Shown: piece by piece, positions 1 to 47,252 of the stretch
Layout of the letters: every line of letters starts with the position of its first letter
Numbering within the stretch: the first letter of the stretch is position 1
From: Escherichia coli
GTDB lineage: Bacteria; Pseudomonadota; Gammaproteobacteria; Enterobacterales; Enterobacteriaceae
NCBI RefSeq assembly: GCF_016903815.1
Contig: NZ_CP069973.1
Direction: 5' to 3' (one strand)
Length of the DNA stretch: 64,000 nt
Notes under the pieces: model-generated
Databases searched by the model: none
What the model was told of the DNA's origin: nothing
The model's input: only the letters and a program-made list of their open reading frames with translations
Position numbers and translations under genes: made by a program

Positions 1-308
1 GTCTCATTATTTGTTGGAAAATCAGTAGCAACGCAATGGCCCAACAGAAAATAAAATCTGTGACAATAAAGGCATATAACCCGCGCAGAATAACGTATAG
101 CAAATTAAAAGTATAATTTTTATTTTGTATGTATTATCTTCAATACATTCACCAGACTTATTATCATTTCAGAAGAATTATTTGATTAAGGTTTTACTTA
201 AGGCGTAACAAATGATATTTATCGGCTAACTGAACTTCTCCTTTAGGATGCTTTCACTCCCCAAAATGGGGATGAAAAGGCAAATAAAATAACTAAAGGA
301 TTTATTCA

Positions 309-1442
309 ATGAAAAGCAAAGTACTGGCACTTTTAATTCCTGCCCTGCTCGCCGCAGGTGCTGCACATGCAGCCGAAGTTTATAATAAAGACGGCAACAA
401 ATTAGATCTGTATGGCAAAGTTGATGGCCTGCATTATTTTTCTGATAATTCAGCGAAAGATGGCGACCAGAGCTATGCGCGTCTGGGTTTTAAAGGCGAA
501 ACCCAAATTAACGATCAACTTACTGGCTACGGTCAATGGGAATACAATATTCAGGCAAACAACACTGAATCTTCAAAAAACCAGTCATGGACCCGTCTAG
601 CATTTGCCGGACTGAAATTTGCAGATTACGGTTCTTTCGATTACGGACGTAATTATGGCGTTATGTACGACATCGAAGGCTGGACCGATATGCTGCCTGA
701 ATTTGGCGGTGACTCTTATACCAATGCAGACAACTTTATGACTGGTCGAGCCAATGGCGTCGCGACTTATCGTAATACTGATTTCTTCGGTCTGGTAAAT
801 GGTCTGAACTTCGCGGTGCAGTATCAAGGTAACAACGAAGGTGCCAGTAATGGTCAGGAAGGCACCAACAACGGACGTGATGTTCGCCATGAAAACGGTG
901 ACGGCTGGGGTCTTTCCACAACATATGATTTAGGCATGGGCTTTAGCGCTGGTGCGGCATACACCTCTTCTGACCGCACCAATGACCAGGTTAACCATAC
1001 TGCGGCGGGTGGTGATAAAGCAGACGCGTGGACTGCTGGGCTAAAATACGATGCTAACAATATTTACCTGGCAACCATGTATTCAGAAACGCGTAATATG
1101 ACCCCGTTTGGCGACAGCGATTATGCTGTTGCAAACAAAACCCAGAACTTTGAAGTTACTGCACAGTACCAGTTTGATTTTGGTCTGCGTCCGGCAGTCT
1201 CTTTCCTGATGTCTAAAGGCCGTGACCTGCACGCTGCCGGTGGTGCAGACAACCCAGCAGGTGTTGATGATAAAGATCTGGTTAAATACGCCGATGTTGG
1301 CGCGACTTACTATTTCAACAAAAATATGTCCACCTACGTTGACTATAAAATCAACCTGTTGGATGAAGATGACAGCTTCTACGCTGCCAACGGCATCTCT
1401 ACCGATGATATTGTCGCTTTAGGTCTGGTTTATCAGTTCTAA
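309..1442 (+). CDS. ompN: Outer membrane porin OmpN (OmpC/OmpF family)
   Basis: 377-aa ORF with signal peptide [21 protein letters not shown], then [23 protein letters not shown] and C-terminal ...LVYQF typical of general porins; followed by a hairpin terminator. Confidence 0.85.
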
Positions 1443-1450
1443 ATCCTCCT

Positions 1451-1475
1451 GCCCGCTGTTATGGCGGGCTTTTTC
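1451..1475 (+). terminator. Rho-independent terminator after ompN
   Basis: gcccgc-tgttat-ggcgggc stem followed by ttttt. Confidence 0.6.
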
Positions 1476-1501
1476 TGCTTATTCTTCCTCCTTTGATCTA
1501 A

Positions 1502-2017
<516 letters not shown>

Positions 2018-2024
2018 CACTAAC

Positions 2025-2049
2025 GCCCGCACATTGCTGCGGGCTTTTT
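2025..2049 (+). terminator. Rho-independent terminator after uspF
   Basis: gcccgcacattgctgcgggc stem-loop followed by ttttt. Confidence 0.6.
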
Positions 2050-2506
2050 GATTCATTTCGCAAATGTGCTGACATTTTCCCCTCTAATCCGTACCATACA
2101 CGCCACAGTTTTTATATCAGATTTCTTATGCTGGGCGTTCCGGCATGACGCATACTCTTCTGATGCCATATAACGAATTGAGTCGCTTTTAAATGTCGCA
2201 AAATCAAGAAATTAGTAAGAAAGAACAATACAACCTGAACAAGTAAGGGCAAAAATCACAACTCTCTGACTCATAAGTATTTTACTTATTTTTCAATGTG
2301 TTAAATATCATCAGCGACAACAATAAGCTACGATAACCCACTCTTTTTTTGCCCCTTTTTTGCCCCTTTTGCAGCGCTTTGCCCCATTTTTGCCATCAAC
2401 AATTTTCCTCATCAAGTCATTTCAAAGCCTAATAGGTGCCCTACTTTTTTCCTCAGTACCACGTCGCCAGCAGGAAACAACCTAATCCCGGTTCGGATCT
2501 AAAATT

Positions 2507-2525
2507 GCTAATGATAATCATTTTC
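2507..2525. promoter_or_regulatory. Fur-box-like site upstream of sitA
   Basis: gctaatgataatcattttc closely resembles the Fur consensus GATAATGATAATCATTATC. Confidence 0.5.
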
Positions 2526-2547
2526 ATTTTGTATTGCTTATGCTATA

Positions 2548-2569
2548 AAACATAGCCGTTGCTATGTTT
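2548..2569. promoter_or_regulatory. MntR-box-like palindrome upstream of sitA
   Basis: Perfect inverted repeat aaacatagc-cgtt-gctatgttt immediately upstream of the sit start; matches the Mn-responsive MntR operator pattern. Confidence 0.55.
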
Positions 2570-2601
2570 GTTCTAATTTTGCTCACTATAGGTACTAAAT
2601 T

Positions 2602-3516
2602 ATGTACTCAATAAAAAAAGTAACCATGCTCTTGGGGTGCCTCGCCCTCACCTGCTCGATCGCATTTCAGGCGAGTGCAACTGAAAAATTCAAGGTCATT
2701 ACAACATTTACCATCATCGCAGATATGGCCAAAAACGTGGCTGGAGATGCTGCAGAAGTCTCATCCATAACCAAGCCCGGTGCAGAAATTCATGAGTATC
2801 AGCCTACCCCTGGCGATATTAAACGTGCGCAGGAGGCACAACTGATTCTCGCCAATGGTATGAATCTGGAATTGTGGTTCCAACGCTTTTACCAGCATCT
2901 TAATGGGGTTCCAGAAGTAATTGTCTCTTCGGGTGTGACGCCAGTAGGGATCACTGAAGGCCCCTATGAGGGCAAACCTAACCCCCATGCCTGGATGTCG
3001 CCAGATAATGCTCTGATTTACGTCGATAATATTCGTGATGCGTTGATAAAATACGATCCGGCAAATGCACAAACCTACCAACGTAATGCCGATACTTATA
3101 AAGCCAAGATTACCCAAACCCTTGCCCCCCTGCGTAAGCAGATTGCTGAACTCCCTGAGAATCAGCGATGGATGGTCACCAGTGAAGGGGCTTTTTCTTA
3201 TCTCGCACGCGATTTGGGGCTAAAAGAGCTTTATCTGTGGCCGATTAATGCCGATCAACAAGGCACGCCGCAGCAGGTACGTAAGGTTGTTGATATGGTG
3301 AAGAAAAATCATATCCCGGCAGTCTTTAGCGAGAGTACGATTTCCGATAAACCAGCGCGTCAGGTTGCGCGTGAAACCGGCGCGCACTACGGCGGTGTAC
3401 TCTATGTCGATTCCCTGAGCACAGAAAACGGCCCGGTACCTACGTATATCGACCTTCTGAAGGTTACTACCAGTACGCTGGTACAGGGAATTAAAGCCGG
3501 GAAAAGGGAGAAATAA
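2602..3516 (+). CDS. sitA: Mn/Fe ABC transporter periplasmic substrate-binding protein SitA
   Basis: 304-aa ORF with signal peptide and cluster A-1 metal-binding protein features; first gene of a 4-gene operon with overlapping stops and starts. Confidence 0.85.
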
Positions 3517-4343
3517 TGATGCAATCTGCGGGCATTGTCGTTAATGATGTTACTGTCACCTGGCGTAACGGGCACACAGCACTGCGCGATGCATCCTTCA
3601 CAGTACCAAGTGGATCTATTGCCGCTCTGGTTGGGGTAAACGGTTCCGGAAAATCGACGTTGTTTAAAGCGATTATGGGATTTGTGCGTCTGACCAGCGG
3701 AAAGATATCTGTTCTGGGTATTCCCACGCGACAGGCGCTACAGAAAAACCTGGTTGCCTACGTCCCTCAGTCAGAAGAGGTTGACTGGTCATTTCCTGTA
3801 CTAGTGGAAGATGTGGTGATGATGGGCCGCTATGGGCACATGGGTATGTTGCGTATAACCAAAAAGAGGGATCGTCAGATTGTCACCGATGCGCTGGAAC
3901 GTGTCGATATGGTGGATTTTCGCCATCGACAAATCGGCGAGCTTTCCGGTGGACAAAAGAAACGCGTCTTTCTGGCGAGAGCGATTGCACAGCAGGGTGA
4001 TGTGATCCTGCTGGATGAACCTTTTACCGGCGTTGATGTGAAAACCGAAGCGAAAATCATCAGCCTGTTGAGGGAGTTACGCGCGGAAGGCAAGACGATG
4101 CTTGTCTCAACGCACAATCTCGGCTCAGTCACGACATTTTGCGATTATACGGTCATGGTCAAAGGCACCGTCCTGGCAAGCGGGCCGACAGACACCACTT
4201 TTACAGCCGAGAACCTGGAGCTGGCTTTTAGCGGCGTACTGCGCCATGTCACACTTAACGCCTCGGAAGAAAGCATTATTACTGACGATGAACACCCTTT
4301 TGTGGCACATCGACCGTCAGCGGTGCAGAGGGAAGCAAGATGA
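3516..4343 (+). CDS. sitB: Mn/Fe ABC transporter ATP-binding protein SitB
   Basis: Walker [13 protein letters not shown] signature LSGGQKKR, Walker B ILLDEP. Confidence 0.85.
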
Positions 4344-5197
4344 ACGTGCTACTGGAACCCTTCAGCTATGAATATATGCTCAATGCGATGTGGGTCTCGG
4401 CGATGGTCGGCGGTCTCTGCGCTTTCCTGTCATGCTATCTGATGCTAAAAGGCTGGTCGCTGATTGGCGATGCGCTGTCGCACTCTATTGTCCCGGGTGT
4501 TGCGGGGGCATATATGCTGGGGCTTCCGTTTTCTCTGGGAGCCTTCTTTTCCGGCGGACTGGCAGCGGGCAGCATGCTGTTTCTTAACCAACGCACTCGC
4601 TTAAAAGAAGATGCCATCATCGGCCTGATCTTCTCCTCCTTTTTTGGCCTGGGGCTGTTTATGGTGTCATTGAACCCGACATCCGTGAACATTCAGACCA
4701 TCGTCCTAGGCAATATTCTGGCAATCGATCCGGCGGATATCCTGCAACTCACTATCATTGGCATTCTCTCGATCATCGTGCTTTTTTTCAAATGGAAAGA
4801 TCTTATGGTGACCTTTTTCGACGAGAATCACGCCCGTGCTATTGGATTGCATCCGGGCAGATTAAAAATCCTCTTCTTCACCCTGCTGTCGGTTTCGACC
4901 GTTGCGGCGCTGCAAACGGTTGGTGCCTTTCTGGTGATCTGTCTGGTGGTGACTCCCGGTGCAACAGCATGGTTGTTAACCGATCGTTTTCCCCGCCTGC
5001 TCATAATTGCTGTAACTATTGGCAGTGTAACCAGTTTCCTCGGCGCGTGGGTCAGTTACTTTCTGGACGGCGCGACAGGTGGAATCATCGTGGTGGCGCA
5101 GACACTGCTGTTTCTTTTAGCATTTGTATTTGCGCCCACCCATGGGCTTTTGGCAAATCGTCGGCGTGCGCATAAAGCGCTGGAGGATCGCTCATGA
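4340..5197 (+). CDS. sitC: Mn/Fe ABC transporter permease SitC
   Basis: 285-aa polytopic membrane protein, ABC-3 permease-like; 4-nt overlap with sitB. Confidence 0.85.
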
Positions 5198-6051
5198 TGG
5201 CATTATTACTGGAGCCACTGCAGTTCACCTTTATGAGTCACGCACTGCTGATTTCACTGGTAGTTTCCATACCCTGTGCGCTGCTGTCGGTCTTTCTGGT
5301 CCTGAAAGGTTGGGCACTGATGGGTGACGCGATGAGTCATGCGGTTTTTCCTGGCATCGTGCTTGCCTGGATTCTGGGGTTACCTCTGGCTACAGGGGCA
5401 TTTATCGCCGGAGTATTCTGCGCGGTGGCGACGGGATACCTGAAAGACAACAGCCGAATCAAGCAAGATACAGTGATGGGGATTGTTTTTTCTGGCATGT
5501 TTGCCGCAGGTCTGATCTTGTATATTGCAGTCAAACCAGACATACATCTTGACCATATTCTTTTCGGCGACATGCTCGGGGTAACCATCGGCGATATAAT
5601 CCAGACGATGATTATTGCCGGGCTGGTTACACTTGTTATTAGCGTAAAATGGCGGGATTTTTTGCTGTTCAGCTTTGATTATCAACAGGCGCAGGTAAGC
5701 GGTTTGCATACGCGATGGCTGCATTATGGGCTGCTGTGCATGGTTTCCCTGACCATTGTGGCGACGCTGAAAGCAGTAGGTATCATTCTCTCCATTTCTC
5801 TGCTCATTGCGCCTGGCGCCATTGCGGTACTCCTGACACAACGCTTTCATATTGCACTCCTACTGGCGACTGGCATATCGGTAATAGTCTCAATGACTGG
5901 TGTTTGGCTGTCCTTTTTTATCGACAGCGCACCAGCTCCGACGATTGTCGTCTTATTCGCGGTTGTGTTCATCATGACGTTTACCGTTATCAGTTTCAAC
6001 GCACGCACAAAGGGAAACGCTCATAGACAGGATCTGTTATCCCCCAATTAG
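5194..6051 (+). CDS. sitD: Mn/Fe ABC transporter permease SitD
   Basis: 285-aa membrane protein paralogous to SitC; 4-nt overlap with sitC. Confidence 0.85.
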   Translation: MMALLLEPLQFTFMSHALLISLVVSIPCALLSVFLVLKGWALMGDAMSHAVFPGIVLAWILGLPLATGAFIAGVFCAVATGYLKDNSRIKQDTVMGIVFSGMFAAGLILYIAVKPDIHLDHILFGDMLGVTIGDIIQTMIIAGLVTLVISVKWRDFLLFSFDYQQAQVSGLHTRWLHYGLLCMVSLTIVATLKAVGIILSISLLIAPGAIAVLLTQRFHIALLLATGISVIVSMTGVWLSFFIDSAPAPTIVVLFAVVFIMTFTVISFNARTKGNAHRQDLLSPN

Positions 6052-6523
6052 CACAACATCCGAGGGCAGCATTGTCCGCTAGTACACTGCAGTCCAGAAA
6101 GTCATGGGCGGACGTTGGGAGGAGGCGCTAATCCTTTCATACAAAAAATATGTAAAATCAATAACGGCTGTAAATCATTCAATACTCGCACTATCGGAAG
6201 TTCACCAGCCAGCCGCAGCACGTTCTTGCATACGACGTGTCTGCGGTTTCAACTTCACCAGTCCACCAATCACGATGGACAGTGCCAAGACAGCACTAGC
6301 AAAAACAGGAAATTAGCAGTCTCAGCAGAACACCGACCAGACGGTGAAGAAACAAAAAAGGATACGCAAAGGGGCCGCAGTTCCCGATTGATAAAAAAGC
6401 CAGCTTATGCGCTTTTTTTTCATGTATTATTAAGTATTGGTTAGCGTCTTTTTAATCAGAACTTTAAAGACAAGCCATTTGTAAGAAAACCGACAGATTC
6501 GGTTGACAAGCAGGAGTAATACT

Positions 6524-7318
6524 TTGGACATAAGAAAAGATTTGGAATCAGTAGCCCAATATATAAGTAGACTGTTATCGATAGGGTACGAATTTAGCCG
6601 TTTTGATAAAGACTGGGTCCATTTAAAAAATGAAGAGGATTTTCGTTTTATTTCAAGAATACCATTTGCAACACGGAATAAAGTGGAAGCAGTATATGCG
6701 GAAGGCAGAGATATGGCACTTTATATGTCTGATGAGTTACTATCCATTAATAGTGATTTCAGTAAATTTCCAACGTTGACAGCTATTATCGAAAGATTCA
6801 AGGACACTTGGGTTTATGGTAATTATGATTCGGAAGTGCCAAATATAGCTAAAAAAACATGCGAAGAAAATGCAGTTCAGCTTTGGTCTGTAGAACAGAT
6901 GTGTTCCTTATTCAAAAAGCAAGAACAACTATTAGCAGCAGTACGTATCACATTGCAGATGCTACAAGATAGTGACCTATACAAGATGGAGAATGGTTTA
7001 CCTCTTATGAAACAAGAAGCTAATATTCATGTCAGTGGAATTTCCGGTTCTAGTATCAATATACATTCTTCAGGTGCTACGGCAACTACTACGACAAATT
7101 ATAATGAGCCCACAATATTTAATGAAATGATTGAGGCAATAAAATCGAAAAACTTTGATGGCGCGACAGAATCACACCTTATAGATAATGTACAGGCACT
7201 GGCAGCCAGTCACCAAAGCGGCTGTTTTAAAGAAGCATATAAGGACTTTATTAATAATGTATCTGCACACATTACAGTATTTACTCCATTTCTTGCTGGC
7301 ATATCATCTTTACTATAA
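6524..7318 (+). CDS. Hypothetical protein (AT-rich cargo gene)
   Basis: ORF in clearly AT-rich DNA; probable TTG start at 6524 preceded by AGGAG, the track start at 6503 is also TTG; followed by hairpin gtgcccta-cca-tagggcac; no family recognised. Confidence 0.45.
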   Translation: MDIRKDLESVAQYISRLLSIGYEFSRFDKDWVHLKNEEDFRFISRIPFATRNKVEAVYAEGRDMALYMSDELLSINSDFSKFPTLTAIIERFKDTWVYGNYDSEVPNIAKKTCEENAVQLWSVEQMCSLFKKQEQLLAAVRITLQMLQDSDLYKMENGLPLMKQEANIHVSGISGSSINIHSSGATATTTTNYNEPTIFNEMIEAIKSKNFDGATESHLIDNVQALAASHQSGCFKEAYKDFINNVSAHITVFTPFLAGISSLL

Positions 7319-7863
7319 AATAAGTGACAGATACATTAATACATAACGAAAAATCTTTTTAGCTACTCATTCATATCAATAGTGCCCTACCATAGGGCAC
7401 ATTATTCGTGGAACTCGTTTATGACAAAAGAATTTTGATGGTCTGCCTGATGCAACAGATATAATTCTGGGAGTGTTGAGTAAGAGTATTCACCGGCGCT
7501 CAACACAAATGCCAGCAAGCACGAGAAAGAGCAGGTAAGCCTGAGTGTTCAGGAAATGTTTGAAAAGGCTAATATGTGGCTGGTTTCAGATTAAACGCCT
7601 TGAACCGTCATATTACTTAAGTACAATCCGCCTAGACTAGCAATCATTCAATAGTAGCACTATCGAGCGCTCGCCAGTCGAGCGCAATCATGCTCCTTGC
7701 ATACGGCGTGCAGCATATCACAAAACGATTACGCCATGACGGACTGCAGGCTACTCAATATCTGGCTCGATTAGCGTATTGGCATGATTTAACAGACCCC
7801 GGCGCTTATTCCCAGCAACCTGAAGCGGCACCTCTTCCTGTGTTGCGTTTACAACTCCCTTTT

Positions 7864-8172
7864 TCACCCACGATTAACCAACAGCCAGACCAGCAGACAA
7901 GCCACCACCGGCACAGAAAAATCCATCAGGCTTGCCACATCCCACACGCGCGGATCAAAACCACCCCACCACGGCATATTCATACGCTTGCCATGCCCGA
8001 ACATTTCAATCCAGCGATATTCTGCCTGGGTATGTTCACGAGCAATGAAGAACGTACAACCGGCTATCGCCCCGTAAGCCCAGTTTCCGGTAAAAAGACC
8101 AACCAGTACCTGCGCAGCCACAGCACAAAGTGCATGAAGGAAAGGTGTTATATCCATTTTCATCCTACCCAA
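7864..8172 (-). CDS. Small hydrophobic protein of unknown function
   Basis: 102-aa ORF with hydrophobic segments, on the same strand and directly downstream of the tail fiber genes; preferred over the overlapping plus-strand ORF 7690..8175. Confidence 0.4.
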   Translation of the reverse strand: MGRMKMDITPFLHALCAVAAQVLVGLFTGNWAYGAIAGCTFFIAREHTQAEYRWIEMFGHGKRMNMPWWGGFDPRVWDVASLMDFSVPVVACLLVWLLVNRG

Positions 8173-8199
8173 TAAAACGGGGCGCTCGGCCCCTTAATA

Positions 8200-9240
8200 T
8201 TATTTAGACGCAAGCGTCGCCTCAATTGCAGATAATCTTTGTTTTAATTCTGCATTTTCTTCTTCCAGTGCTGTTATTCTGTCGTCTGACTCTCTGGCTA
8301 CCTGAACAAGCAAGCCAGTAACACCAGAATAATCTACTGTGTAATAACGTTCACCTTCTTCACCTTCCGATCCGCTTGCACCGTCCTGATATTTCATTGC
8401 GGAACCTACAACTTCTGGGATTGCTTCCAGAGCTTCCTGTGCAATGACACCAGCATAGGGCATACCGTTTTCTTTAAGCGTGTATGTATAGCCGTTCATT
8501 TTACGGATGCGGTCGGTTGCATTATCGATCACCTGAATGTTGTCTTTCAGATCCCGGTCGGAATGCTGGTTAAATGCGGTGGCATGACATGCACCATTAA
8601 CGCTTAACATATAGGTGTTATCGGTATTTTTCTGCGCATAGAACATATAAGCGCCACCATCAACACCGACTTCATAAACAACAGGACGGCTGGAGTTGCC
8701 CCACAATTGAGCAGTAACACCAGCATAAGCGGTTCCCTGTGTGTTTAATGTCATGGTTGACCCATGATTGGCATATTTGATCTGTAATGTGTCGGTGTAA
8801 TCAAATTTAATAAGCGCGTTACTTCCACGCTTGCTGTATGACATAAGGCAGTTACCCATTTTGAGGTATCCGCTGTCACCGGGAAAAATCATCGTACCGC
8901 CATAAAGGTTGGTAAAGTCCCAGCAAATGTTTGTCCCGTTATCGTTCAGGTTAAGGCGCGCCATTGCGTTACCTGGACTGTCTATCCATTTTTTGAGGTA
9001 TAGTTCGCAATACGCATCCTCAACACCTGCCGTCCTGTGAGTTGAGCGGAGTTTTCTCCCAAATATAGCTCCGCTAGTTGGCAATACCTGCTGATACCAT
9101 GAAGCAGACCAGTCACCAACGATTTCATCTTTGCTGTCTACATATAATTTTGTTGCGTAGCTTCCTTGATCGTTTTTTAATTTGCTAACGTCGGATTTTA
9201 GCGTTTTGATGTCATCAGGAATTACTGTCGATGTAGCCAT
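8200..9240 (-). CDS. Tail fiber / receptor-binding protein with C-terminal intramolecular chaperone-like domain
   Basis: 346-aa ORF; C-terminus (NGYTYTLKENGMPYAGVIAQE...YYTVDYSGVTGLLVQ...ITALEEENAELKQRL) resembles the autoproteolytic chaperone domain of tail fibers and tailspikes. Confidence 0.55.
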   Translation of the reverse strand: MATSTVIPDDIKTLKSDVSKLKNDQGSYATKLYVDSKDEIVGDWSASWYQQVLPTSGAIFGRKLRSTHRTAGVEDAYCELYLKKWIDSPGNAMARLNLNDNGTNICWDFTNLYGGTMIFPGDSGYLKMGNCLMSYSKRGSNALIKFDYTDTLQIKYANHGSTMTLNTQGTAYAGVTAQLWGNSSRPVVYEVGVDGGAYMFYAQKNTDNTYMLSVNGACHATAFNQHSDRDLKDNIQVIDNATDRIRKMNGYTYTLKENGMPYAGVIAQEALEAIPEVVGSAMKYQDGASGSEGEEGERYYTVDYSGVTGLLVQVARESDDRITALEEENAELKQRLSAIEATLASK

Positions 9241-9249
9241 TTTTCTTCC

Positions 9250-9531
9250 TCACATCCAGCCACGAAGTTGATGCTCAACAGCAACCACGTATTCATCGAA
9301 TAATGACGATATTTGCGAATCATTAATGATGCGCACGTTTACAAAATATCCGTCTTCCTTAACACATACCGGTTCGCCATCTTCAGTCAGTTCTCCGGTT
9401 TCTTTGTACACGTTACCTATCACGTCAATAAGAATATCATCCTGCATCGACTCGTCATCATAATAGCCAATACTCTCCATAAAGGCCGAAAAGTCGGCCC
9501 TGTCGGCAAATTTGAGTGTTAAATCTTTCAT
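9250..9531 (-). CDS. Hypothetical acidic phage protein (possible tail fiber accessory)
   Basis: 93-aa acidic ORF between the two fiber genes; start overlaps the stop of the upstream stf-like gene. Confidence 0.4.
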   Translation of the reverse strand: MKDLTLKFADRADFSAFMESIGYYDDESMQDDILIDVIGNVYKETGELTEDGEPVCVKEDGYFVNVRIINDSQISSLFDEYVVAVEHQLRGWM

Positions 9532-11912
9532 TAGATTGACTCCCCCACCTGAGCATCAGTCAATGCCTTGTGCCATATTCTGAAATTCCTGACATGACCA
9601 AATAAATGACGTAACCCGGCTGTAGTCTGGCCTCCAATACGGATAATTGCGGTGTTCTGAATACAGGACCATGTGGTTTTTGTTTCGCTGGATATATGCC
9701 CGTTACTTACTGAGCACGTAGACTGCTCTGACTTTACACGCATCCCCATAACCATTTTTTCAAGCGATGCGTTTTCGTTTACCCGTCTGTTAGCTCCTCC
9801 AATATCGCAATAAGGAAATCCGTCGTAATCTGTTGAACGACCGAAGCCAAGAATAATAGCCGCTCCGGTTTGATGACCGCCGGTATCAAAAACACGTGGC
9901 GCTGCATTTGGCGTTTTATACCAGTTCTTATGTACCTCACAAAGAACCGTAAAAGGAAGATTATAAAGATTATTCTTAATTGGAACTGTAACTATATCGC
10001 TTGCGCGGGTCGCCGCCGTCGCTCCTGATATAATAAAAGATGATACACAAGGCCCATCTTCTACTTGTGGGGTGGCCAGATAAATATAGTCACCAGATAC
10101 GGTTGCCCCGCTCTGCTTAGGAGAATACTGTATCTGAGAGCCTATTTTTAACTCCCCATCAATTGCCTGAATTGTTGCCTCTGCAAAAATCCATCCGGTA
10201 GCTTCGTCCTTTCTGACTCTCGCTGTAATCCTTGAGGCAGCACCGCCTGTCATATTAATTTCAAGCGTTTGTGTATCAATATACGCATCACCAAGAAAAG
10301 TTGTTGCGCTACCGTCATATTTATCAAACCGGATACGCAACCTTACCTGCAGTTCTGTTTTAAAACGACATGAGGTTGTCACGTGTTTATTATCGCCTGA
10401 GACATCAACTGACTTTGTTGCAGCAATTGATGCCATATTAATGGCTGAGGTTTGCCCAATCAGAGAATCGTTGCAGACAAACTTTCCATAGGTAAAACCA
10501 AAATTATCCGTCCCTGTTTCGGGCACATCCATATTTGACGATCGCCCCCAACTGGCAGGGCTTTCCGAATTGAGCATGTAGTTTGTTCTTTGCCCCTCAA
10601 TAAGCAGGCCATCACGTTCAAATCGTGGCTCGTCAATGGCAGCCTCTGTCAGCACACCAGATTTGTTAATATAGGTTGCTTTCGATGCACGTTTAAACTT
10701 AACAACCTTGTCGCCAGGCATCGTTATTTCATCATCACCAATAACAATTTTTTTATATGATGGCGAAAAGCCCGTAATCATATCCAGCGAATCGTTAAAT
10801 GGTATCCACACATCAGGCAGCGGCTGTAAGACATATTTATACGGCTCCGCAGCCTGGCTTGCGTACTCTCTGGCTGCATCTTCGCTTGCTTTAGCTGCCG
10901 TCTGGCTTGCTGCCGATGCTTTCGCTGAGTTCGCAGCCGCTGTTTCGCTCACCTTTGCGTTGGTTTCACTGGTTTTTGCTGCTTTTTGACTGTTAGCTGA
11001 TGCAGTGGCAGAAGCAGCCGCCGCGCTTGCAGAACTGGCTGCGGCACTCTCGCTTTGGGCCGCTGCATCCTGACTGCTTTTCGCCGCAGTTTCACTGGCT
11101 TTGGCATTCGTTTCGCTGGTCTTCGCTGCCGTCTGGCTGGACTTTGCGTTAGTTTCACTCGTCTTCGCAGCTTTCTGGCTGTTAGCCGCAGCAGTTGCTG
11201 ATCCAGCTGCTGAAGTCGCAGAACCGGCTGCCGCGCTCTCGCTTTCAGCTGCTGCAGCCTGGCTGTTTTTTGCCGCAGTTTCACTGGCTTTGGCATTCGT
11301 TTCGCTGGTTTTCGCTGCCGTCTGGCTGGACTTTGCGTTGGTTTCGCTCGTCTTTGCGGCTGTCTCACTGTTTTTCGCGTTGGTTTCTGATTTTTTGGCT
11401 GCTGTCGCAGAGTTTGCCGATGCAGTCTTTGAGGTCGCTGCCGCCTGTGCACTATTAGCTGCATTCGTTTCTGAGGTTTTCGCCGCGTTCTTCGATGATG
11501 CCGCTGCAGTTTCGGATTTCTTTGCCGCCGCTGCGCTCTGAGAGGCGGCTTCGGCGTTGCGTGCCACTTCTTCCACCATTGCCTCAAAACGACGCAATGC
11601 CTCCGGCATGACATCCTCTTCCGTCATGGCACCGAGAAAATCATTCAGCGTACCTGGTCTGGAGCCTTCATAGACGGTAATGGTCCCGGCATGTGAAGGC
11701 GGAAAACCTTCAACCAGCAGGATGACGCTGTACTGGCCATGCTCAACATCCATGCTGTAACGCCCGGCTTCATCCGGATTTTCAGAGGCCACCGTGTTCA
11801 CCAGTACCGTGGTGCTGTTACGCTTTGCCTTCAGTTGAATAGTGCAGTTCTGTATTGGTTTTCCCGCACAATCTTTCAGCACACCTGAGATTTTTACTGC
11901 TGCCATATCCAC
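9531..11912 (-). CDS. stf: Side tail fiber protein (lambda Stf-like N-terminus, repetitive central region)
   Basis: 793-aa ORF; N-terminus MDMAAVKISGVLKDCAGKPIQNCTIQLKAK... like lambdoid Stf; central Ala/Ser/Thr-rich degenerate repeats (AAKTSETNAKSS...). Confidence 0.8.
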   Translation of the reverse strand: MDMAAVKISGVLKDCAGKPIQNCTIQLKAKRNSTTVLVNTVASENPDEAGRYSMDVEHGQYSVILLVEGFPPSHAGTITVYEGSRPGTLNDFLGAMTEEDVMPEALRRFEAMVEEVARNAEAASQSAAAAKKSETAAASSKNAAKTSETNAANSAQAAATSKTASANSATAAKKSETNAKNSETAAKTSETNAKSSQTAAKTSETNAKASETAAKNSQAAAAESESAAAGSATSAAGSATAAANSQKAAKTSETNAKSSQTAAKTSETNAKASETAAKSSQDAAAQSESAAASSASAAAASATASANSQKAAKTSETNAKVSETAAANSAKASAASQTAAKASEDAAREYASQAAEPYKYVLQPLPDVWIPFNDSLDMITGFSPSYKKIVIGDDEITMPGDKVVKFKRASKATYINKSGVLTEAAIDEPRFERDGLLIEGQRTNYMLNSESPASWGRSSNMDVPETGTDNFGFTYGKFVCNDSLIGQTSAINMASIAATKSVDVSGDNKHVTTSCRFKTELQVRLRIRFDKYDGSATTFLGDAYIDTQTLEINMTGGAASRITARVRKDEATGWIFAEATIQAIDGELKIGSQIQYSPKQSGATVSGDYIYLATPQVEDGPCVSSFIISGATAATRASDIVTVPIKNNLYNLPFTVLCEVHKNWYKTPNAAPRVFDTGGHQTGAAIILGFGRSTDYDGFPYCDIGGANRRVNENASLEKMVMGMRVKSEQSTCSVSNGHISSETKTTWSCIQNTAIIRIGGQTTAGLRHLFGHVRNFRIWHKALTDAQVGESI
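10850..11560. repeat. Degenerate tandem coding repeats inside stf
   Basis: Repeated gcagcc/gctgcc-rich units encoding AAKTSETNAK-type repeats; they generate spurious ORFs on the opposite strand. Confidence 0.6.
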
Positions 11913-11970
11913 TCCACAAAAAAGCCCGCCTGAACCGGCGGGCTGTCATAACACTGTGTTACCTGGCTAA

Positions 11971-12570
11971 TCAGAATTTATAACCGACACCCACGATGAA
12001 ACCGTCAGTGCGCCAGTCACCACTGCCGGAGCCTTCATAAGCAATATCAATGGCCACGGATTCGGTCGGGTTAAACTGCACGCCAGCCCCCCACGCCAGA
12101 GACGTGTTGCTGTGGCGACCGTCATCACTTCCGGTCAGCACATCGTGCGTTTTCCCCTTGCTGTCAGTTACGCGGAGATAATCCCCGGAAAAAGTTGAAA
12201 CACGGCTGTAAGCCACACCTGCCATCGCATAAGCACTGAACCATTCATTCACGCGTACAGACGGCCCCGCCATCATGCTGAACCAGCGGTTACGCACTGA
12301 ATCTTCATGCCAGCGGGTATCGCTGTAATGCGTTTTTTGCTCATCTTTGGCATTGGCATAACTGAATGACGTCACCAGCCCCAGCGTGTCCGTAAATTCA
12401 TAACGGTATTTCACGTTAATGCCCTTCAGGTCATCGTTGCCGGGCATATCAGTATGGGTCTGAAGATACCCGGCGCTTAGTGTGGACTGATGCTCTGCTG
12501 CGCTCGCTGGCGTACCAGCGGCGACCAGCCAGACTACTGTGGACAGAATAACAGCACATAATTTACGCAT
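11971..12570 (-). CDS. lom: Outer membrane protein Lom (Ail/Lom family)
   Basis: 199-aa ORF with signal peptide, beta-barrel pattern and C-terminal ...GVGYKF; position after J as in lambda. Confidence 0.85.
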   Translation of the reverse strand: MRKLCAVILSTVVWLVAAGTPASAAEHQSTLSAGYLQTHTDMPGNDDLKGINVKYRYEFTDTLGLVTSFSYANAKDEQKTHYSDTRWHEDSVRNRWFSMMAGPSVRVNEWFSAYAMAGVAYSRVSTFSGDYLRVTDSKGKTHDVLTGSDDGRHSNTSLAWGAGVQFNPTESVAIDIAYEGSGSGDWRTDGFIVGVGYKF

Positions 12571-12637
12571 AATTACCTCTCGCTTTTCTGCAATAAAAAA
12601 GGCGCCATTTCTGGCGCCCGTATCTGGGTTATAAAAT

Positions 12638-15600
12638 TCAGCTAATCGTGATGCCTGCAGTGGCTTTCTTCATCACAACAACCAGCAAATCGCTGATACT
12701 TGCTGTGGGATACCAGCCATTTACCCACCATGCTGATACAGAAAACTCCAGTGTCATTACGCCACTGCCTGCAGGCATATCAATAACACCCGTGTAAATC
12801 AGAGTATTATCCAGAGCCGTTCGGTTATAAATTTCAGCCCCGTTTTTCTTCACTATCAGGCGGCATGACGAATAAGTATCGCTATTCTCCCGTTCATGTC
12901 TGGCACCGCTGAAAGCCACCGCTGGAATAACAATTTGCCGGTCAAACGGCTGATCGTCATAAACCCTGACGGTAATGGTCCCTGATGGCCACCGCTCCGG
13001 TGCACGGGAGTCCCGGGGGAAAGCTTTGCCCACTGTTTTAACGAGATCGCCTTCAATCTGGTTCGCGGACAGTTTTCCCAGAACCCGACAGTTCTCGTTA
13101 ATCGTGACGTTGTTGAGCGTCCCGGAGTTCGCATTCACGCTACCGCTGATATCGGCATTTTTCGCCGTCAGTCGCCCGTCCGGTGTCAGGGAAAATGCCG
13201 GAGGATTACCGCCGCTGGTAATGGTGGGAGCCGTCAGATATTTCAGGAACACTTCATTCATGAATATCTGATCGCCCTGACCAACAAACATCGGCTTTGT
13301 GTTGCCATTCGCAGGATTAATCATCGCAATCCTGTCCGCCGCCAGCAGCACCTGACTCTGCATGCCGTCGGGGGTGTTCTCAATACCGGCACCGATACCC
13401 GCAATATAAAGGCGTCCGTCCTGCATCTGCTGCAGCTTCACTGCCCACATGCTGTTCAGGTTATTATTTGTATCAACCTGAACCTTCTGTATCTGCTGGA
13501 TCGCTGCACTCTGGTCTTCCAGTTTCTTATTGACGGTCTGCGTGATTTCATTGCTGACATCCGTAATGGACGTCCTGATTTCAGCCAGGTCAGGCGCAAG
13601 CTGACCGTTATCAATCTGCGTCCACAGCTCCTGAGCCAGATGGGTTTTCCCTATCTCGCCTTTGAAAAAATCCAGATAGCCGGATGCATCATCACTCGGC
13701 TGACCAACAGCCTCCACGAATGCCGATTTGCCAACGGTGTTCACACTGCGAACGTAAAAATAATAATCATGGCCCGGTTTGATATTGATACTGGCGGCTA
13801 TCCAGTACAGCCCCGTGCCAAGATAGCTGGCTGTGGTTTCAACCTGCCTGATATCGGTAATCCGCTTTTCCGAGAACCAGAACTCAAACTGTACCGTCGG
13901 GTCATAAACGGCAAGATGCGGCGTGGCGGTTATCTGAAAATACCCCGGCGTCAGCTCAATCCGCGACGGTGCTACCGGTGCGGCAATCCGGAACGATACC
14001 GACGCCGGATCGCCCTGCTGTCCCCACGCATTTACCGCCCGGACTGTCAGCGTGTACCGCCCCAGCGCCAGTTGCGTGAAGCGGTATGTGGTTTCCGTCG
14101 TCCGGGCCGTGCTGACCAGCCGCTCACTGCCGTCATCCGCTGCCACGGTCAGGCGAAGCAGGAAGCTCACGCCCTTCACCACCTTCGGCGTGTCCCAGCG
14201 CGCCAGCACCTGATATTCCCCGCTGTCTGCGGTGACTTCGGCGGTCAGGTGCTGCACCGCTGGCGGCGTGACACCATTCACCGTGCCGCTCTGGTCGCCG
14301 TCAAAGTGCGCCCCGTTATCCACGATGGCTTCTTTTTCCGGTACATGCTGCACGGCAGTGATGGCATACGTGCCGTCATCGTTCTCACGGATACTCACAC
14401 AGCGGAACAGGCGCTGGCGCAGCGTCGGCAGCTTCAGCCCCCACACACTGTATTCTGCAACGCCGTCAGGAACCCGGTTCACTTTCACCTTAAGTCCGTC
14501 GGTGACGGACTGAACCTCCACGCTGACCGGATTACCACTTCCGTCAACCAGGCTTATCAGCGTGGTACCGGAGGATGGCAGCGTGATTTCACGGTCGAGC
14601 GTCAGCGTCCGGGTCTGGCTGTTCACCGCCAGCACGCGACCACCGGTGCTGATACCGGCATAGTCATCATCACAGATTTCAATGACATCGCCCGGTACAT
14701 GGCGAAGCCCTTCGGCACCCACGCTGAAGTCCACGGTCTGCGTTTCCAGCAGTTCCGTTTTAATCAGCCACAGCCCGGCGCGGTGCGCCTGCCCCCGGCT
14801 GGTACAGCCAAAGGCATCCATCTTCGTGACGTTACGACCGTAACGGAGAATGGCCTGCGTATCTTCAACAAGCTCTGTCGCCGTCTCCCAGCCGTTATCC
14901 GGGTCAATCCAGTTCACCTCAACGGCATTATGGCGGTCCTTCAGGGCGCTGAAGCTGTAGCGGAACGGCGCGCCATCATCCGGCATCACCACATTACTGT
15001 GGTTATAGGTCCACACCTTATCCGACGGTCGGTCCTGCACGAACGTCAGCGTCTGCCCGTTCCATACCAGCATACAGCGCATCGCCGAACAGAAATCACT
15101 GAGCACATCCCACGCCTTGCGCTGTGTGGTCAGGTACGCATTACAGGTGATGCGCGGCTCCGTGCCGCCAAAGCCGTCCGGCACTGACTGGTCGCAGTAC
15201 TGGCCGATGACATACAGCGCCCATTTGTCCACATCCGCCGCACCAAGACGTTTCCCCATGCCGTAGCGTGGATGGGTCAGCATATCCCACAGACACCAGG
15301 CCATGTTATTGCTGTATGCTGGCTTAAACGTTCCGTCCCAGATACCGCTGTATTGCCGAGTCTGCGGGTTATAGTTCGATGGCACCTGCAGAATGCGCCC
15401 GCGAAGATGATAATTACGGCTCACCTGCTGGCTGCCGAACTGTTCCGAGTCCACCTGCACGCCGACCAGTGCCGTGTTCGGGTAGCACTGTTTCACATCG
15501 ATGATTTCAGTGTATGACGACCAGAGCGTTTTGTTCTGCAGCTGGTCTGTGGTGCTGTCCGGCGTCATCCTGCGCATCCGGATATTAAACGGGCGCGGCG

Positions 15601-16117
15601 GCAGGTTATCCACCACAACCGAGGCCAGATACTGTGAAGTGGTTTTACCCTTAATGGTGATGTCTTTTTCCGTCACCCAGCCACCGTTACGTTGTATCTG
15701 AACCAGCAGGCGGACTTCCGATGGATTCCTGTCCCCCTTTGAGGTGGTTTCCACCAGTGCCTGCACGCCGAAAGTAAAACGCAGACGGTCAATGTTTGCC
15801 GACGTGATGGTCCGGGTTATCGGCGTGTCATATTTCACTTCTGTACCGAGCACCGTCTCGGAGCCGGAGGATTCAAATCCCTCCGGCGGTGTCTGCTCCT
15901 GCTCACCGGCCCGGAACACCACCGTGACGCCGGATATATTGGTATTCCCCTCACTGTCCAGCACCGGCGTACTGTTCAGCAGCACGCTTTTTAATCCATC
16001 CACCGGACCTTCAACCGGCCCTTCGCTGATGGCATCGATCACACTCAGCAGCTGCGTGGACTTCAGGTTGTCCTTCGCTTCGCGCGGGGTATGCCCCTTA
16101 CTGCTGCCTTTACCCAT
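12638..16117 (-). CDS. J: Tail tip host specificity protein J
   Basis: 1159-aa ORF collinear with lambda gpJ, following I. Confidence 0.9.
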
Positions 16118-16177
16118 TCGTCATGCTCCATAAACGATAAAACCGCCCGGAGGCGGTTTCACATAAAACATTTTGCA

Positions 16178-16819
16178 TCAGCGACCAATCACCACAACCT
16201 GACCACCATCCCCTTCGTCTGCCGTGCTGATCTCCTGAGAAACCACGCGTGACCCCACGCGCATTTCACCGTACAGAACCGGCAGAACATTGCCCTGGGC
16301 AACCATGTTATCCAGTGAAGAAAAATAGGTGTTCTGTTTGCCGTTATCCGTTGTCTGTGTGCGGGGAGTTCTGGGTTTAGGGGCCAGCATCTGTGCAACA
16401 CCGCCAAGCGTCATACTGGCACCGAGAGAAAACAGCAGATTACTCGCCATAATTCCTACCCCCGGCATCCATATAGCAACCGCCATAACAGCCGCCCCCA
16501 GCACAGCCTGAAACACACCGCCACTTTTGGCTCCTGCCAGACGCGGCACGATATGGATCACGGCACCATTTTCCAGCGGCTCATTAAGACGGGCAGACAA
16601 TTCGGTTTCACCTGCATCACGCCCGGCAATGCGTACCTGGTACCAGCCGTCGCTCAGTTTCTGACGAAATGCCGGGATCTGCATGGCCAGCGCCCGGATG
16701 GCTTCGGCCCCCGTTTTCACTCGAAGGTCGATGCGGCGGCCAAATCGTTGTAAATCCCCGTAAAGGCAGATGCGTGCCATGCCCGGTGACGCCAGAGGGA
16801 GTGTGTGCGTCGCTGCCAT
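16178..16819 (-). CDS. I: Tail assembly protein I
   Basis: 213-aa ORF, lambda gpI-like, overlapping K as in lambda. Confidence 0.85.
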   Translation of the reverse strand: MAATHTLPLASPGMARICLYGDLQRFGRRIDLRVKTGAEAIRALAMQIPAFRQKLSDGWYQVRIAGRDAGETELSARLNEPLENGAVIHIVPRLAGAKSGGVFQAVLGAAVMAVAIWMPGVGIMASNLLFSLGASMTLGGVAQMLAPKPRTPRTQTTDNGKQNTYFSSLDNMVAQGNVLPVLYGEMRVGSRVVSQEISTADEGDGGQVVVIGR

Positions 16820-17460
16820 TTGTCGGTGTACCTCTCTCGTTTGCTCAGTTGTTCAGGAATATGGTGCAGCAGCTCGCTGTCACCACAGTAAATGGCGGCA
16901 TGATTCGGCACCGATGAACCAAAACAGCACAGCAGCACATCGCCCGGCTGCGCCGCTGACAGCGGCACCTGATACAGCCCTGCGGCCTCCAGATTATCCA
17001 GATAGAGATTCTGACCGTTACGCCACCAGTCATCCTCACGATGAAAATCCGGCATCTCAATCCCCGCCAGATGGTAAGCATCCCGGAACAGCGTGTAACA
17101 GTCCGTCACCCCGTGCTCAAAGAGCCGCCCGGTGAGATGCGGCACACAGCGGAATTTATGAATCGCCCCCCGGCAGACCAGCCACCACGGCAAATCACTC
17201 TGCACCTGCAACCGCCGGTCGGCCTCACTCAGCCAGGGCAGACCACCGGGATGGCTGTGCACCAGCGCCACAATCTCACCCTGCATTTCTGCCCGCAGCC
17301 AGTCCTCCGGCGACATCCGGAAATACGCCTCCGGCTCACCGGAGATATTTACGCAGGGAAGATATCTGTCTCCCTCCGGCGTTCTCACCACAAAGCCGCA
17401 CGACTCCGCTGGCGCACATCGCCGGGCGTGCGCCAGAATCGCTGATTCTGTCTCTGTCAT
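16717..17460 (-). CDS. K: Tail assembly protein K (NlpC/P60 and JAB-like)
   Basis: MTETESAILAHARRCAPAESCGFV... with HSHP motif; lambda gpK-like. Confidence 0.85.
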   Translation of the reverse strand: MTETESAILAHARRCAPAESCGFVVRTPEGDRYLPCVNISGEPEAYFRMSPEDWLRAEMQGEIVALVHSHPGGLPWLSEADRRLQVQSDLPWWLVCRGAIHKFRCVPHLTGRLFEHGVTDCYTLFRDAYHLAGIEMPDFHREDDWWRNGQNLYLDNLEAAGLYQVPLSAAQPGDVLLCCFGSSVPNHAAIYCGDSELLHHIPEQLSKRERYTDKWQRRTHSLWRHRAWHASAFTGIYNDLAAASTFE

Positions 17461-17465
17461 GGGAT

Positions 17466-18164
17466 TTACTGCGAAAGTTTGTTAATGGAAAGGAAGCCGC
17501 CAAAGTTGCCGACGTTATTGCGAAACTTACAGCCACTCAGGCATTTGCTGCATTTATCCTTCGTGATATCGGTTGTCGGCTGGTCATATTCATCCGCGAC
17601 AGCCGGACCGTGATAACCGCACTCATCACCGCGATAGGTCCAGGTGCAGGTGTTGGCCAGCATGATACGTCCCGGAAAAACAGCGCCATCCGTTTCCGTC
17701 GGCGTGGACAGTACAAAGGAGGCACTGACCGCGCTCAGTTCGCTGCACTGCTCGATGCGCCAGCGGCTGATCACCTCCTGCTCCGGATCGGCGTCGCTGT
17801 TTCCGTTGACGAAGTTCACCGCATCCAGAAAACGGGCATAAACCTTACGCCTGACCACCGTTCCGCCGACCAGACTCTGCAGGTCTTCCGCCATCCCGGT
17901 GACCATACCGTACAGGTTAGAAACCGTCAGCGTGGGGCGCGTACTGGTACCTTTGCCATTCAGTTCGAAACCACTCCCCTGAATGGGATACGCCTGATAC
18001 TGTCGCCCCTGCCAGGTGACCGGCTCACCTTTTTCGTTCTGCTCATTACAGAAAAAATAACGTTCTCCACCAACCTCTGTCAGATCGATTTCCCAGAGCA
18101 CCACGCAGGCAGACTGCTCCGCACGGGTGCATTCATTCAGTGTTTCCTGTCGGATATCCTGCAT
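17466..18164 (-). CDS. L: Minor tail protein L
   Basis: 232-aa ORF, lambda gpL-like, with Cys cluster near the C-terminus. Confidence 0.9.
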   Translation of the reverse strand: MQDIRQETLNECTRAEQSACVVLWEIDLTEVGGERYFFCNEQNEKGEPVTWQGRQYQAYPIQGSGFELNGKGTSTRPTLTVSNLYGMVTGMAEDLQSLVGGTVVRRKVYARFLDAVNFVNGNSDADPEQEVISRWRIEQCSELSAVSASFVLSTPTETDGAVFPGRIMLANTCTWTYRGDECGYHGPAVADEYDQPTTDITKDKCSKCLSGCKFRNNVGNFGGFLSINKLSQ

Positions 18165-18493
18165 CAGTTCACCACCTGTTCAAACTCTGCGCTGAACTCA
18201 ACACGCAGCATACTGACCCGCGACGACCATTTTGCGCAGGTCACCTTTATCTGCCGCCACTCATAAGGCGGCGTCCACAGAAAGGCTTTCCAGCCCCCGT
18301 GCTCTTCCAGAAACGACTCCAGTACCGTGGCCTCCTCACGGGGGACAGAAAGCGTCACGCTGTACGTTTTCAGGTTGGCATTCAGCCCGGCAGGCGCTCG
18401 CTGGGAATAGCCATCACCAAAGCGCACCTTTCTTACAGAAGGGGCCGAAGCCACATCCATACCGGGTTTCACTTTCCAGCGGAAGGTTTTCAT
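18164..18493 (-). CDS. M: Minor tail protein M
   Basis: 109-aa ORF, lambda gpM-like, between H and L. Confidence 0.9.
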   Translation of the reverse strand: MKTFRWKVKPGMDVASAPSVRKVRFGDGYSQRAPAGLNANLKTYSVTLSVPREEATVLESFLEEHGGWKAFLWTPPYEWRQIKVTCAKWSSRVSMLRVEFSAEFEQVVN

Positions 18494-46565: not shown

Positions 46566-47252
46566 TCACTCCTTCTCTTCTTTATCGTAGTGGAGTTGAC
46601 CAATTTTGATAAGAGGGCGTCCCTGAGATTTGCGGTGTAGATTGGTATCGCGCAGAGAATACACACAGCCACAATATTCCTGCTGATAGAATTTTTCGCG
46701 CTTGCTGATTTCAATCATGCGGGACGAGCCGCCCTGCTTGCGCCAGTTATAATCCCAGTACACCATGCCCGGATAATGCGCGACGGCTCGCCGCCCACAG
46801 TCGTTAACCTGCTGCATATTTTTCCAGCGTGAAATGCCCAGTGAACTGCTGATCACACTGAAACCATTTTCAGCAGCGTACAGCGCTGTCCGCTCAAAAC
46901 GCATGTCAAAACACATGGTACAACGGATCCCCCTCTCGGGCTCCCATTCCATTCCTTTGGCACGTTCAAACCAGTTGTCTGTGTCGTAATCAGCATCAAT
47001 AAATGGCACGCCGTGTTGTTCAGCAAAGCGAATATTCTCATCCTTACGAATTAAATACTCTTTCTGAGGATGAATGTTCGGGTTGTAGAAAAAGATGGTA
47101 TAGTCGATTCTCGAGGCCTGAAGTGCCTCCATCACTTCACCGGAACATGGAGCACAGCAAGAGTGCAGTAGTAGTTTGTTTGCCCCGTTTGGGAGCTCCA
47201 ATTTAGGCCGTTTGAAATCAGCAATAGTCATAAATATTTTTATTGGGGTCAT
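46566..47252 (-). CDS. DUF208 / QueH-like protein (putative epoxyqueuosine reductase family)
   Basis: [11 protein letters not shown] and FFYNPNIHP motifs plus additional Cys (CTMC, CGC) as recalled for the QueH/DUF208 family. Confidence 0.6.

Follow-up and report, generated by a model that had tools for sequence, protein, structure and literature searches.

The sitABCD operon considered in this study lies near the left end of a 64,000-nucleotide (nt) stretch of Escherichia coli contig NZ_CP069973.1 (the whole of which is referred to here as the window), on the plus strand between the core gene uspF and the minus-strand tail-fibre genes of a lambdoid prophage. This is where an earlier reading made from the letters alone (the sequence-only reading) had placed it, and the features do occur at those positions. 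The comparison genome was that of E. coli strain 7/2 (CP023820.1), which is 100% identical to window positions 1–9500, and the wider survey covered 5426 complete E. coli genomes. In strain 7/2, but not in the window, a copy of the insertion sequence (IS) IS1 lies between ydfO and gnsB (at about 32.5 kb in the window; CP023820.1 1,822,243–1,822,940; an offset of 777 bp). The features at the left end of the prophage are as follows:

1583–2017: core gene uspF, with a terminator-like hairpin at 2025–2044
2193–2243, plus strand: first 51 nt of ttcA (5' fragment), equal to the K-12 pseudogene ttcC'; attachment (att) core region, attR, of a Rac-type prophage
2244–2402, plus strand: Rac-type right arm, attP-derived, common to sit-positive and sit-negative prophages at the ttcA site
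2403–6152, plus strand: sitABCD cassette (regulatory region, four genes and 3' tail), 3.75 kb, beginning about 160 bp from the att core
2507–2525, plus strand: Fur box upstream of sitA
2549–2568, plus strand: MntR-type palindrome AACATAGC-N4-GCTATGTT upstream of sitA
2602–3516, plus strand: sitA, substrate-binding protein (open reading frame (ORF) and RefSeq name; match to a Mn/Zn ATP-binding cassette (ABC) transporter family)
3516–4343, plus strand: sitB, ATPase (NCBIfam Mn/Fe ABC ATPase equivalog, score 588.6 bits, above the cut-off of 393)
4340–5197, plus strand: sitC, permease (Mn/Zn ABC family match)
5194–6051, plus strand: sitD, permease (Mn/Zn ABC family match)
6152–6249, plus strand: segment conserved in the lambdoid b region, with a terminator hairpin (6211–6247) at its right end

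Genomes in which this site is unoccupied read ompN-uspF-ttcA-dbpA, and their homology to the window stops at 2242, 50 nt into ttcA. In K-12, the Rac prophage is annotated as ending on the right at this 51-nt piece of ttcA (ttcC'), which adjoins uspF. By these alignments, 2193–2243 is the last chromosomal sequence, and all DNA to the right of it is on the phage side. Beyond this core the arm is matched by K-12 Rac to 2395 (99% identity) and by a sit-less prophage at the same site (L002) to 2402, and many other genomes match the window only to about 2395–2399. As the ttcA fragment with its att core and the 159-bp Rac arm separate uspF from sit, the operon lies inside the prophage.

The limits of the cassette can be set at 2403–6152 because its flanks are nearly joined in prophages that lack it, which is the comparison with sit-negative strains that the sequence-only reading had proposed for defining the insertion. 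In L002, window positions 1–2402 and 6153–6249 are parted by 58 bp instead of 3.75 kb, and in K-12 Rac about 38 bp stand at the place of the cassette before the match to the window resumes at about 6153–6209. With the same flanks present and the cassette absent in both of these siblings, sit is, on comparative grounds, dispensable to the phage. The GC content and codon usage profile, also put forward as a check, was of use for one gene only: sit, at 49.6% GC against 48.9% for the window, is indistinguishable from host DNA and is not marked as foreign, and a 264-amino acid (aa) gene further to the right alone stands out.

The four genes form a complete ABC importer operon (binding protein, ATPase and two permeases) with overlapping stop and start codons. 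Identity of 97% to characterized sit loci of plasmids and uropathogenic E. coli, together with the literature, suggests that SitABCD imports Mn2+ and Fe2+; the system has been described as transporting both ions under repression by MntR and Fur, with a role in oxidative-stress resistance and virulence (PMC3852070). The Fur box matches GATAATGATAATCATTATC at 17 of 19 positions, where none would be expected by chance, and an upstream fur box has been reported for phage-borne sit (PMC6969025). The MntR-type palindrome is an exact match and the only one in the window, with zero expected by chance. At the other end, the hairpin at 6211–6247 has a folding energy of −22.9 kcal/mol (z = −3.3), and the segment of about 100 nt that contains it is also found in K-12 Rac, K-12 Qin, phage PhiR63_1 and L002. 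Because a T-run follows the hairpin in all four, it is read as an intrinsic terminator, which probably ends the sit operon here. The cassette would be a self-contained moron, with a Fur- and MntR-controlled region and a terminator hairpin downstream, and because it has its own regulation and terminator, sit is expected to be expressed from the repressed prophage under Fe or Mn shortage, presumably independently of the phage repressor. Such metal-limited expression would favour the host, and hence the prophage. In the LF82 lysogen, sit of prophage Perceval is a transcribed moron (Misson et al., 2023, PMC9928086).

Lambdoid phages that have been isolated, namely phage 21, Perceval, 1H12, 4A7, the Lambda_ev series and PhiR47_2, carry the same cassette (2416–6071, about 97% identity) between the tail fibres and attP. 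In phage 21, J is followed by the side tail fibre gene, the 93-aa and 97-aa genes and then, on the opposite strand, sitDCBA, after which come a few small genes, icd', attP and int, and the icd-site prophage of strain S6, which shares 2416–6071, is laid out in the same way. By gene order, sit thus occupies the lambda b-region position, from tail fibres to att, which does agree with the proposal in the sequence-only reading that this is the usual moron position of lambdoid phages. Since infectious lambdoid phages with other att sites (e.g., icd) carry it, phages do move the cassette between strains, and there is evidence of its entry into two or more phage lineages that differ in att site. Among lambda isolates from infant stools, sitABCD was the commonest moron, found on 70% and always with a fur box (Mathieu et al., 2020, PMC6969025). 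That sit is carried as cargo on lambdoid phages is correct and has already been published; carriage of this metal-uptake virulence factor by such phages is established knowledge, which the present headline does not change, and a modest use of these data lies in the exact boundaries of the cassette in a Rac-type phage.

Compared with the sit-bearing lambdoid coliphages (phage 21, OL657228.1; Perceval, OV696612.1; Lambda_ev/1H12), the window is alike in the four genes (about 97% identity), the upstream region and the Fur box, and in the placing of sit between the 93-aa/97-aa fibre module and att, on the strand opposite to the fibres. Those phages use icd and other sites and have more genes between sit and attP, whereas the window has a Rac-type ttcA site, about 160 bp from att to sit, the terminator segment downstream and an extra insert of 1.4 kb. 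A database record named 'Salmonella phage SPF_0923' (ON032529.1, L028) was considered as a Rac-type sit phage and rejected, as it contains nifJ', ompN and uspF. This 'complete phage genome' is a mis-bounded prophage region with E. coli-type nifJ', ompN, uspF, ttcC' and sitABCD, and could mislead surveys of sit in phages.

Further to the right, the window contains three features that bear on the origin of the prophage:

10690–16568, minus strand: crossover tract (5' half of the side tail fibre gene stf, lom and J), 5,880 bp perfectly identical to the inverted copy in a second prophage
57419–58714, plus strand: intact Qin-site integrase, orthologue of K-12 intQ
58902–63499: Qin-site flank that follows the integrase (rspB, rspA, ynfA, ynfB, speG, ynfC)

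Positions 57555–63006 are 98.3% identical to the K-12 region from intQ and rspB to ynfC, and from 31.4 to 58.7 kb the genes follow the order of K-12 Qin: nohA, ynfO, ydfO, gnsB, cspI, rzpQ, rrrQ, essD (essQ in K-12), cspB/F, ydfT/U, rem, hokD, relBE, flxA, dicB, ydfD and the intQ orthologue beside rspB. Strain 7/2 carries a reciprocal element, which reads dbpA, ttcA, intR, xisR, ralR, recT, recE, kilR, sieB, ydaT, trkG, terminase through J, lom, fibres, pinQ, ydfK, ynfT and ydfJ. Both prophages contain a repeat of 7.6 kb, in inverted orientation (window 10617–18186 against L020 37017–29449, opposite strand, 98.6% identity), of which the copy in strain 7/2 lies at CP023820.1 1,579,448–1,587,016 (L020 29449–37017). 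All mismatches in this repeat fall outside 10690–16568, and the J and Lom protein accessions are the same in both prophages. The outer flanks of the two are swapped, the Rac site being paired with the Qin site and vice versa. The ttcA 51-mer occurs once in the window, and its att partner (43 nt, 93% identity) lies beside intR and ttcA in strain 7/2, inverted and about 250 kb away, so that the window holds attR only, and intR and attL are in the reciprocal hybrid.

An inversion between a Rac-site and a Qin-site prophage is the simplest reading of the swapped flanks and the identical inverted tract. A sit-bearing Rac-site prophage would have undergone homologous recombination with an inverted Qin-site prophage through the shared stf-lom-J tract, which would invert a terminus-side segment of about 250 kb and give a hybrid with the ttcA-type att at the sit-bearing end and the integrase and att of Qin at the opposite end. 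The sit cassette, the insert with the 264-aa gene and the distal fibre genes would then derive from the Rac-type phage, and the DNA to the right of about 16.6 kb from the Qin-site phage. In strains TA8571 and 18AR0366, sit adjoins trkG and recET remnants, which fits a Rac-type origin of sit. Because the att sites are mismatched and an IS66-family element lies between xis and int, precise excision is unlikely, and the hybrid prophage is probably unable to excise. With mismatched att sites, sit would now be fixed in the chromosome and vertically inherited in this clone. A probability of about 90% is given to this reading as a whole, namely that the window holds the right end of a Rac-type prophage with a sit moron cassette and a separate 264-aa insert, grounded by a Rac/Qin inversion. 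The positions, boundaries, homologies, motifs and rearrangement that enter into it are observed. The earlier suggestion that sit travels with the phage holds in part: the cassette is found in the genomes of packaged, infectious phages, but this applies to the cassette and not to the present hybrid prophage, which appears no longer able to excise. Of the att-like repeats sought at either end, the ttcA att core at 2193–2243 was found, and none was found beyond int, which is the integrase of the Qin site.

An alternative is that sitABCD forms a chromosomal island that abuts the prophage and lies outside its boundary, as its place directly downstream of core uspF and its host-like GC content of 49.6% might suggest. 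This is extremely improbable, as the ttcA fragment with the att core and the Rac arm put sit on the phage side, and the same cassette occurs in the genomes of isolated phages and in a prophage at icd. The distribution of sit among the surveyed genomes also speaks against an island. The operon is present in 2336 of the 5426 (in 1682 chromosomal and 1060 plasmid places), with the uspF-ttcC'-sitA junction in 494, and in all five of the junction genomes sampled (7/2, 18AR0366, ApSLC23, TA8571 and WI2) phage or Rac-remnant genes follow sit. A composite query, in which the 3' half of sit was joined to ttcA-dbpA, found sit within 3 kb of ttcA in 0 of 5426 genomes. The sequence-only reading had named sit at this site in strains lacking any prophage as the finding that would tell against phage carriage, and neither the five sampled genomes nor the composite query gave an instance of it. 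The roughly 97% identity of about 1060 plasmid copies raises another possibility, that IS-mediated transposition brought the chromosomal sit into the prophage from a virulence plasmid of the ColV/ColBM type. This is very unlikely, as the plasmid (ColV-type) copy is shorter (2389–6058) and bounded by IS1 and a Tn3 remnant, whereas the phage and chromosomal copies are without IS flanks and have extra flanking sequence in common; for these reasons transfer from phage or chromosome to plasmid, or independent transfer, is more likely.

It is also very doubtful that the window represents one intact, excisable lambdoid prophage with matching att repeats, with which sit could be mobilised now, the picture implicit in the sequence-only reading. 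The genes from the tail fibres to int are collinear and lambda-like, and most structural genes are full length, but the prophage is flanked by the Rac site on the left and by the Qin site on the right, the partner of the single ttcA core is with intR in the reciprocal hybrid, no matching att repeats were found across the window, and IS copies (IS66-family, IS200 and ISNCY) lie within the prophage. The IS66-family element (54763–57378, plus strand) consists of tnpA, tnpB and a gene for a 523-aa ISCro1-type transposase, between the excisionase gene (54441–54692) and the integrase gene; IS200 and an ISNCY fragment lie elsewhere in the prophage, as annotated in strain 7/2. Several observations weigh against a Rac-type prophage grounded by inversion. 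The search for a Qin att core gave only an unconvincing 11-nt match (E = 0.03), and because of this the view that the prophage cannot excise is based on its flanks being mismatched, in place of a defined att pair. For the reciprocal junction, the sequence used was that of strain 7/2, which has the extra IS1 and may be a different isolate. The terminator segment of phage 21 is upstream of sitA, not downstream, and the history of the cassette would therefore include more than one insertion or recombination event. A simple scan picked up no sigma-70 consensus promoter beside the Fur box, and both expression of sit and transport by its products in this strain are predictions.

The Rac-type character of the left end is further reflected in its likeness to K-12 Rac, which has ttcC' beside uspF, the right arm (99% identity to 2395) and the terminator segment, and in the intR, xisR, ralR, recET, kilR, sieB and trkG genes of the reciprocal half in strain 7/2. 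K-12 Rac differs in having ynaM, ynaE and pinR at the place of sit, and the Rac-type prophage of the window is split by the inversion. With K-12 Qin the window shares the gene order of 31.4–58.7 kb through the intQ orthologue next to rspB, but it differs in having an intact integrase, a full lambda-like head and tail module, and a far end at the Rac site, not at ydfJ. Prophage-mediated inversions and 'grounded' prophages have been described before (Iguchi et al., 2006, as cited in PMC6379469), and, as far as the citing account goes, these are alike in that homologous recombination between an inverted pair of lambdoid prophages that flank the terminus yields two hybrids with mismatched att sites. 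The present case differs in being a specific event between the Rac and Qin sites, with a 5.9-kb identical stf-lom-J tract. No published description of this Rac/Qin inversion was found in a literature search that was not exhaustive. An inversion between prophages flanking the terminus may in this way ground a phage-borne virulence operon and turn it into a fixed trait of a clone, here a clone known from about 100 clinical isolates with sequenced genomes. The arrangement is shared, at 99% identity or more, by about 100 genomes; a 16-kb query across the hybrid joint was not discriminating, as lambda-like tails are everywhere.

The tail-fibre module lies to the right of the cargo region and consists of the following genes, with the tail-fibre PHROG matches phrog_4563, phrog_1361 and phrog_1419 across three of them:

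7864–8157, minus strand: 97-aa membrane protein gene (phrog_1443, 7e-59, residues 1–96 of 97)
8200–9240, minus strand: 346-aa tail fibre
9250–9531, minus strand: 93-aa protein
9531–11912, minus strand: 793-aa side tail fibre

The first of these had been described as a 102-aa hydrophobic protein (ORF 7864–8172) and, with the 264-aa gene, as cargo accompanying sit. RefSeq and the PHROG alignment both start the gene at 8157, which gives 97 aa, not 102. Tritos, 2G7b, HannyBb and PhiR63_1, which are phages without sit, have the gene directly behind the same fibre genes, and so does phage 21, whose annotation describes the product as a membrane protein with two transmembrane domains. By its context, the gene closes the tail-fibre module and does not belong to the sit cargo. 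Cargo status does hold for the 264-aa gene, which is, however, in an insert of its own and is not a companion of sit, since phage 21, S6 and the majority of sit loci lack it. Within the gene for the 793-aa side tail fibre, 10881–11414 (minus strand) contains 21-nt-periodic repeats that encode an Ala/Ser/Thr/Lys-rich shaft (...KTSETNAKxSxTAA...).

Between the conserved terminator segment and the 97-aa/fibre module is a slot (6250–7860 in the window; also in L003, L007, L019, L023 and L024) in which the cargo differs by prophage. It holds a major facilitator superfamily efflux gene in 18AR0366, a 410-aa gene in WI2, two genes of unknown function in the prfC-site prophage of UTI89 and a type II restriction-modification system in Tig228, and it is empty in ApSLC23; the defence system PD-T7-1 lies just upstream of the slot in L024. 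Because its contents vary among prophages, the slot would appear to be a cargo or defence hotspot beside the tail fibres. The other cargo proteins in the slot (UTI89, WI2 and S6) had no PADLOC matches. The segment itself lies about 200–300 bp inside the att-proximal end in K-12 Rac, Qin, L002 and PhiR63_1, and in sit-less phages it is at the place of lambda tI/sib, downstream of int across attP. In the window, the slot is occupied by the second insert:

6243–6369: stretch like the 3' end of ssrA, 84% identical to the last approximately 28 nt of ssrA (transfer-messenger RNA, tmRNA) plus the downstream DNA of island-free E. coli
6250–7641, plus strand: second AT-rich cargo insert, independent of sit, 1.4 kb, bracketed by two copies of the conserved segment
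6524–7318, plus strand: 264-aa gene, 35.6% GC, 27.5% GC at third codon positions
7382–7400: terminator hairpin within the insert, 3' of the 264-aa gene
7408–7594: frameshifted dinI-like pseudogene

The second copy of the conserved segment (copy region 7642–7720) is 76% identical to 6173–6217 over 7642–7686. The insert occurs at 99% identity or more in 104 of the 5426 genomes and in no phage record. The ssrA-like stretch hints at an ssrA-site element as the source of the 264-aa module, and may be what is left of the att region of that element; comparable sequence flanks the variable cargo in the UTI89 and Tig228 prophages. At 35.6% GC, the 264-aa gene is as AT-rich as the sequence-only reading had stated.

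The 264-aa protein had no Pfam, PHROG or NCBIfam match, and the Pfam AbiTii profile matched neither this protein nor any of 30 homologues. PADLOC v2 gave no significant defence-model match, returning only PDC-M14B (E = 0.0017, 16 bits). Close homologues number 85 across Gammaproteobacteria, at 32–76% identity, and among the 1365 hits of a profile search, many share only the N-terminal approximately 160 residues and have other C-termini. In 30 such N-terminal-only relatives, Pfam identified TIR_2 (5), CAP12/Pycsar-type TIR (2), SEFIR (1), CHAT (2) and PNP_UDP phosphorylase (1) domains, and in 10 relatives run through PADLOC, several C-termini matched the candidate effectors PDC-S54, S35, S66 and M60C, in addition to TIR models. 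Homologues were found in a Stutzerimonas integron cassette with attC-like 79-nt repeats, at the end of a Klebsiella integrative and conjugative element (ICE) and at Enterobacter prophage ends. In Stutzerimonas nitrititolerans (L009 2771–4138), a single cassette holds the homologue and an upstream gene for a 99-aa membrane-like protein, a pairing that recurs in L010; the 99-aa partner is absent from the window and from the enterobacterial prophage and ICE copies. An AlphaFold2 model of the 264-aa protein is all-helical (mean predicted local distance difference test score 86.6), with a conserved low-confidence linker and a hydrophobic C-terminal helix. A fold search of the PDB with this model found nothing below E = 0.4, and Foldseek gave weak links to AbiTii-labelled proteins (E = 6.5e-8, template modelling score 0.56).

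From its domain architecture and context, the 264-aa gene is put forward, at a little under even odds, as a candidate single-protein abortive-infection gene. A broader and more tentative proposal is that it belongs to an undescribed modular anti-phage family, in which an N-terminal helical sensor or scaffold of about 160 aa is joined to swappable killers (TIR, CHAT, PNP), and which may be mobile as one gene among integron cassettes, ICEs and the lambdoid b-region hotspot. In such a family, the short, hydrophobic, helical C-terminus of the 264-aa form would damage the membrane. The gene may instead have no role in defence and be a lysogenic-conversion membrane protein, an addiction-module toxin or an anti-defence factor that benefits the element, an explanation that also falls somewhat short of an even chance. 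It would suit the hydrophobic C-terminal helix, the failure of the protein to match any curated defence model apart from the marginal PDC-M14B and the pairing of integron copies with the 99-aa membrane protein that is missing here, but the repeated fusion of the N-terminal domain to TIR, CHAT, PNP and PADLOC candidate effectors, the Foldseek ties to AbiTii-labelled proteins and the type II restriction-modification system in the same slot of another prophage favour a defence function. The AbiTii/AbiJ-NTD proteins (Anantharaman et al., 2013, PMC3710099) are alike in having an N-terminal domain of about 160–180 aa with interchangeable C-terminal effectors, and the 264-aa family is likewise sporadic on mobile elements. 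AbiTii differs in being described as alpha+beta, whereas the 264-aa protein is predicted to be all-helical and lacks a Pfam AbiTii match; the effectors of the 264-aa family are TIR, CHAT and PNP rather than HEPN, and the C-terminus of the 264-aa protein is short, helical and hydrophobic. This candidate defence family is the only lead here with some novelty, and the 264-aa gene offers a cheap, testable defence candidate in a variable slot beside the tail fibres.

Two regions of the window away from the cargo may also be mentioned. To the left of uspF is ompN (309–1442), and upstream of it the 5' part of the small RNA MicC was identified at 1–83 (minus strand; 73.8 bits), clipped by the window edge; micC-ompN is a known gene arrangement. 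Rfam and tRNA scans of 1–12000 gave this truncated MicC and two sub-threshold hits only, with no tRNA and no tmRNA. In a very AT-rich patch (32% GC) of the prophage early region, a complete pair of Kiwa defence genes is encoded at 44718–46357 (minus strand), with KwaB of 342 aa (PADLOC 5e-158) and KwaA of 204 aa (1e-101), and a QueH-like gene at 46566–47252 adjoins it.

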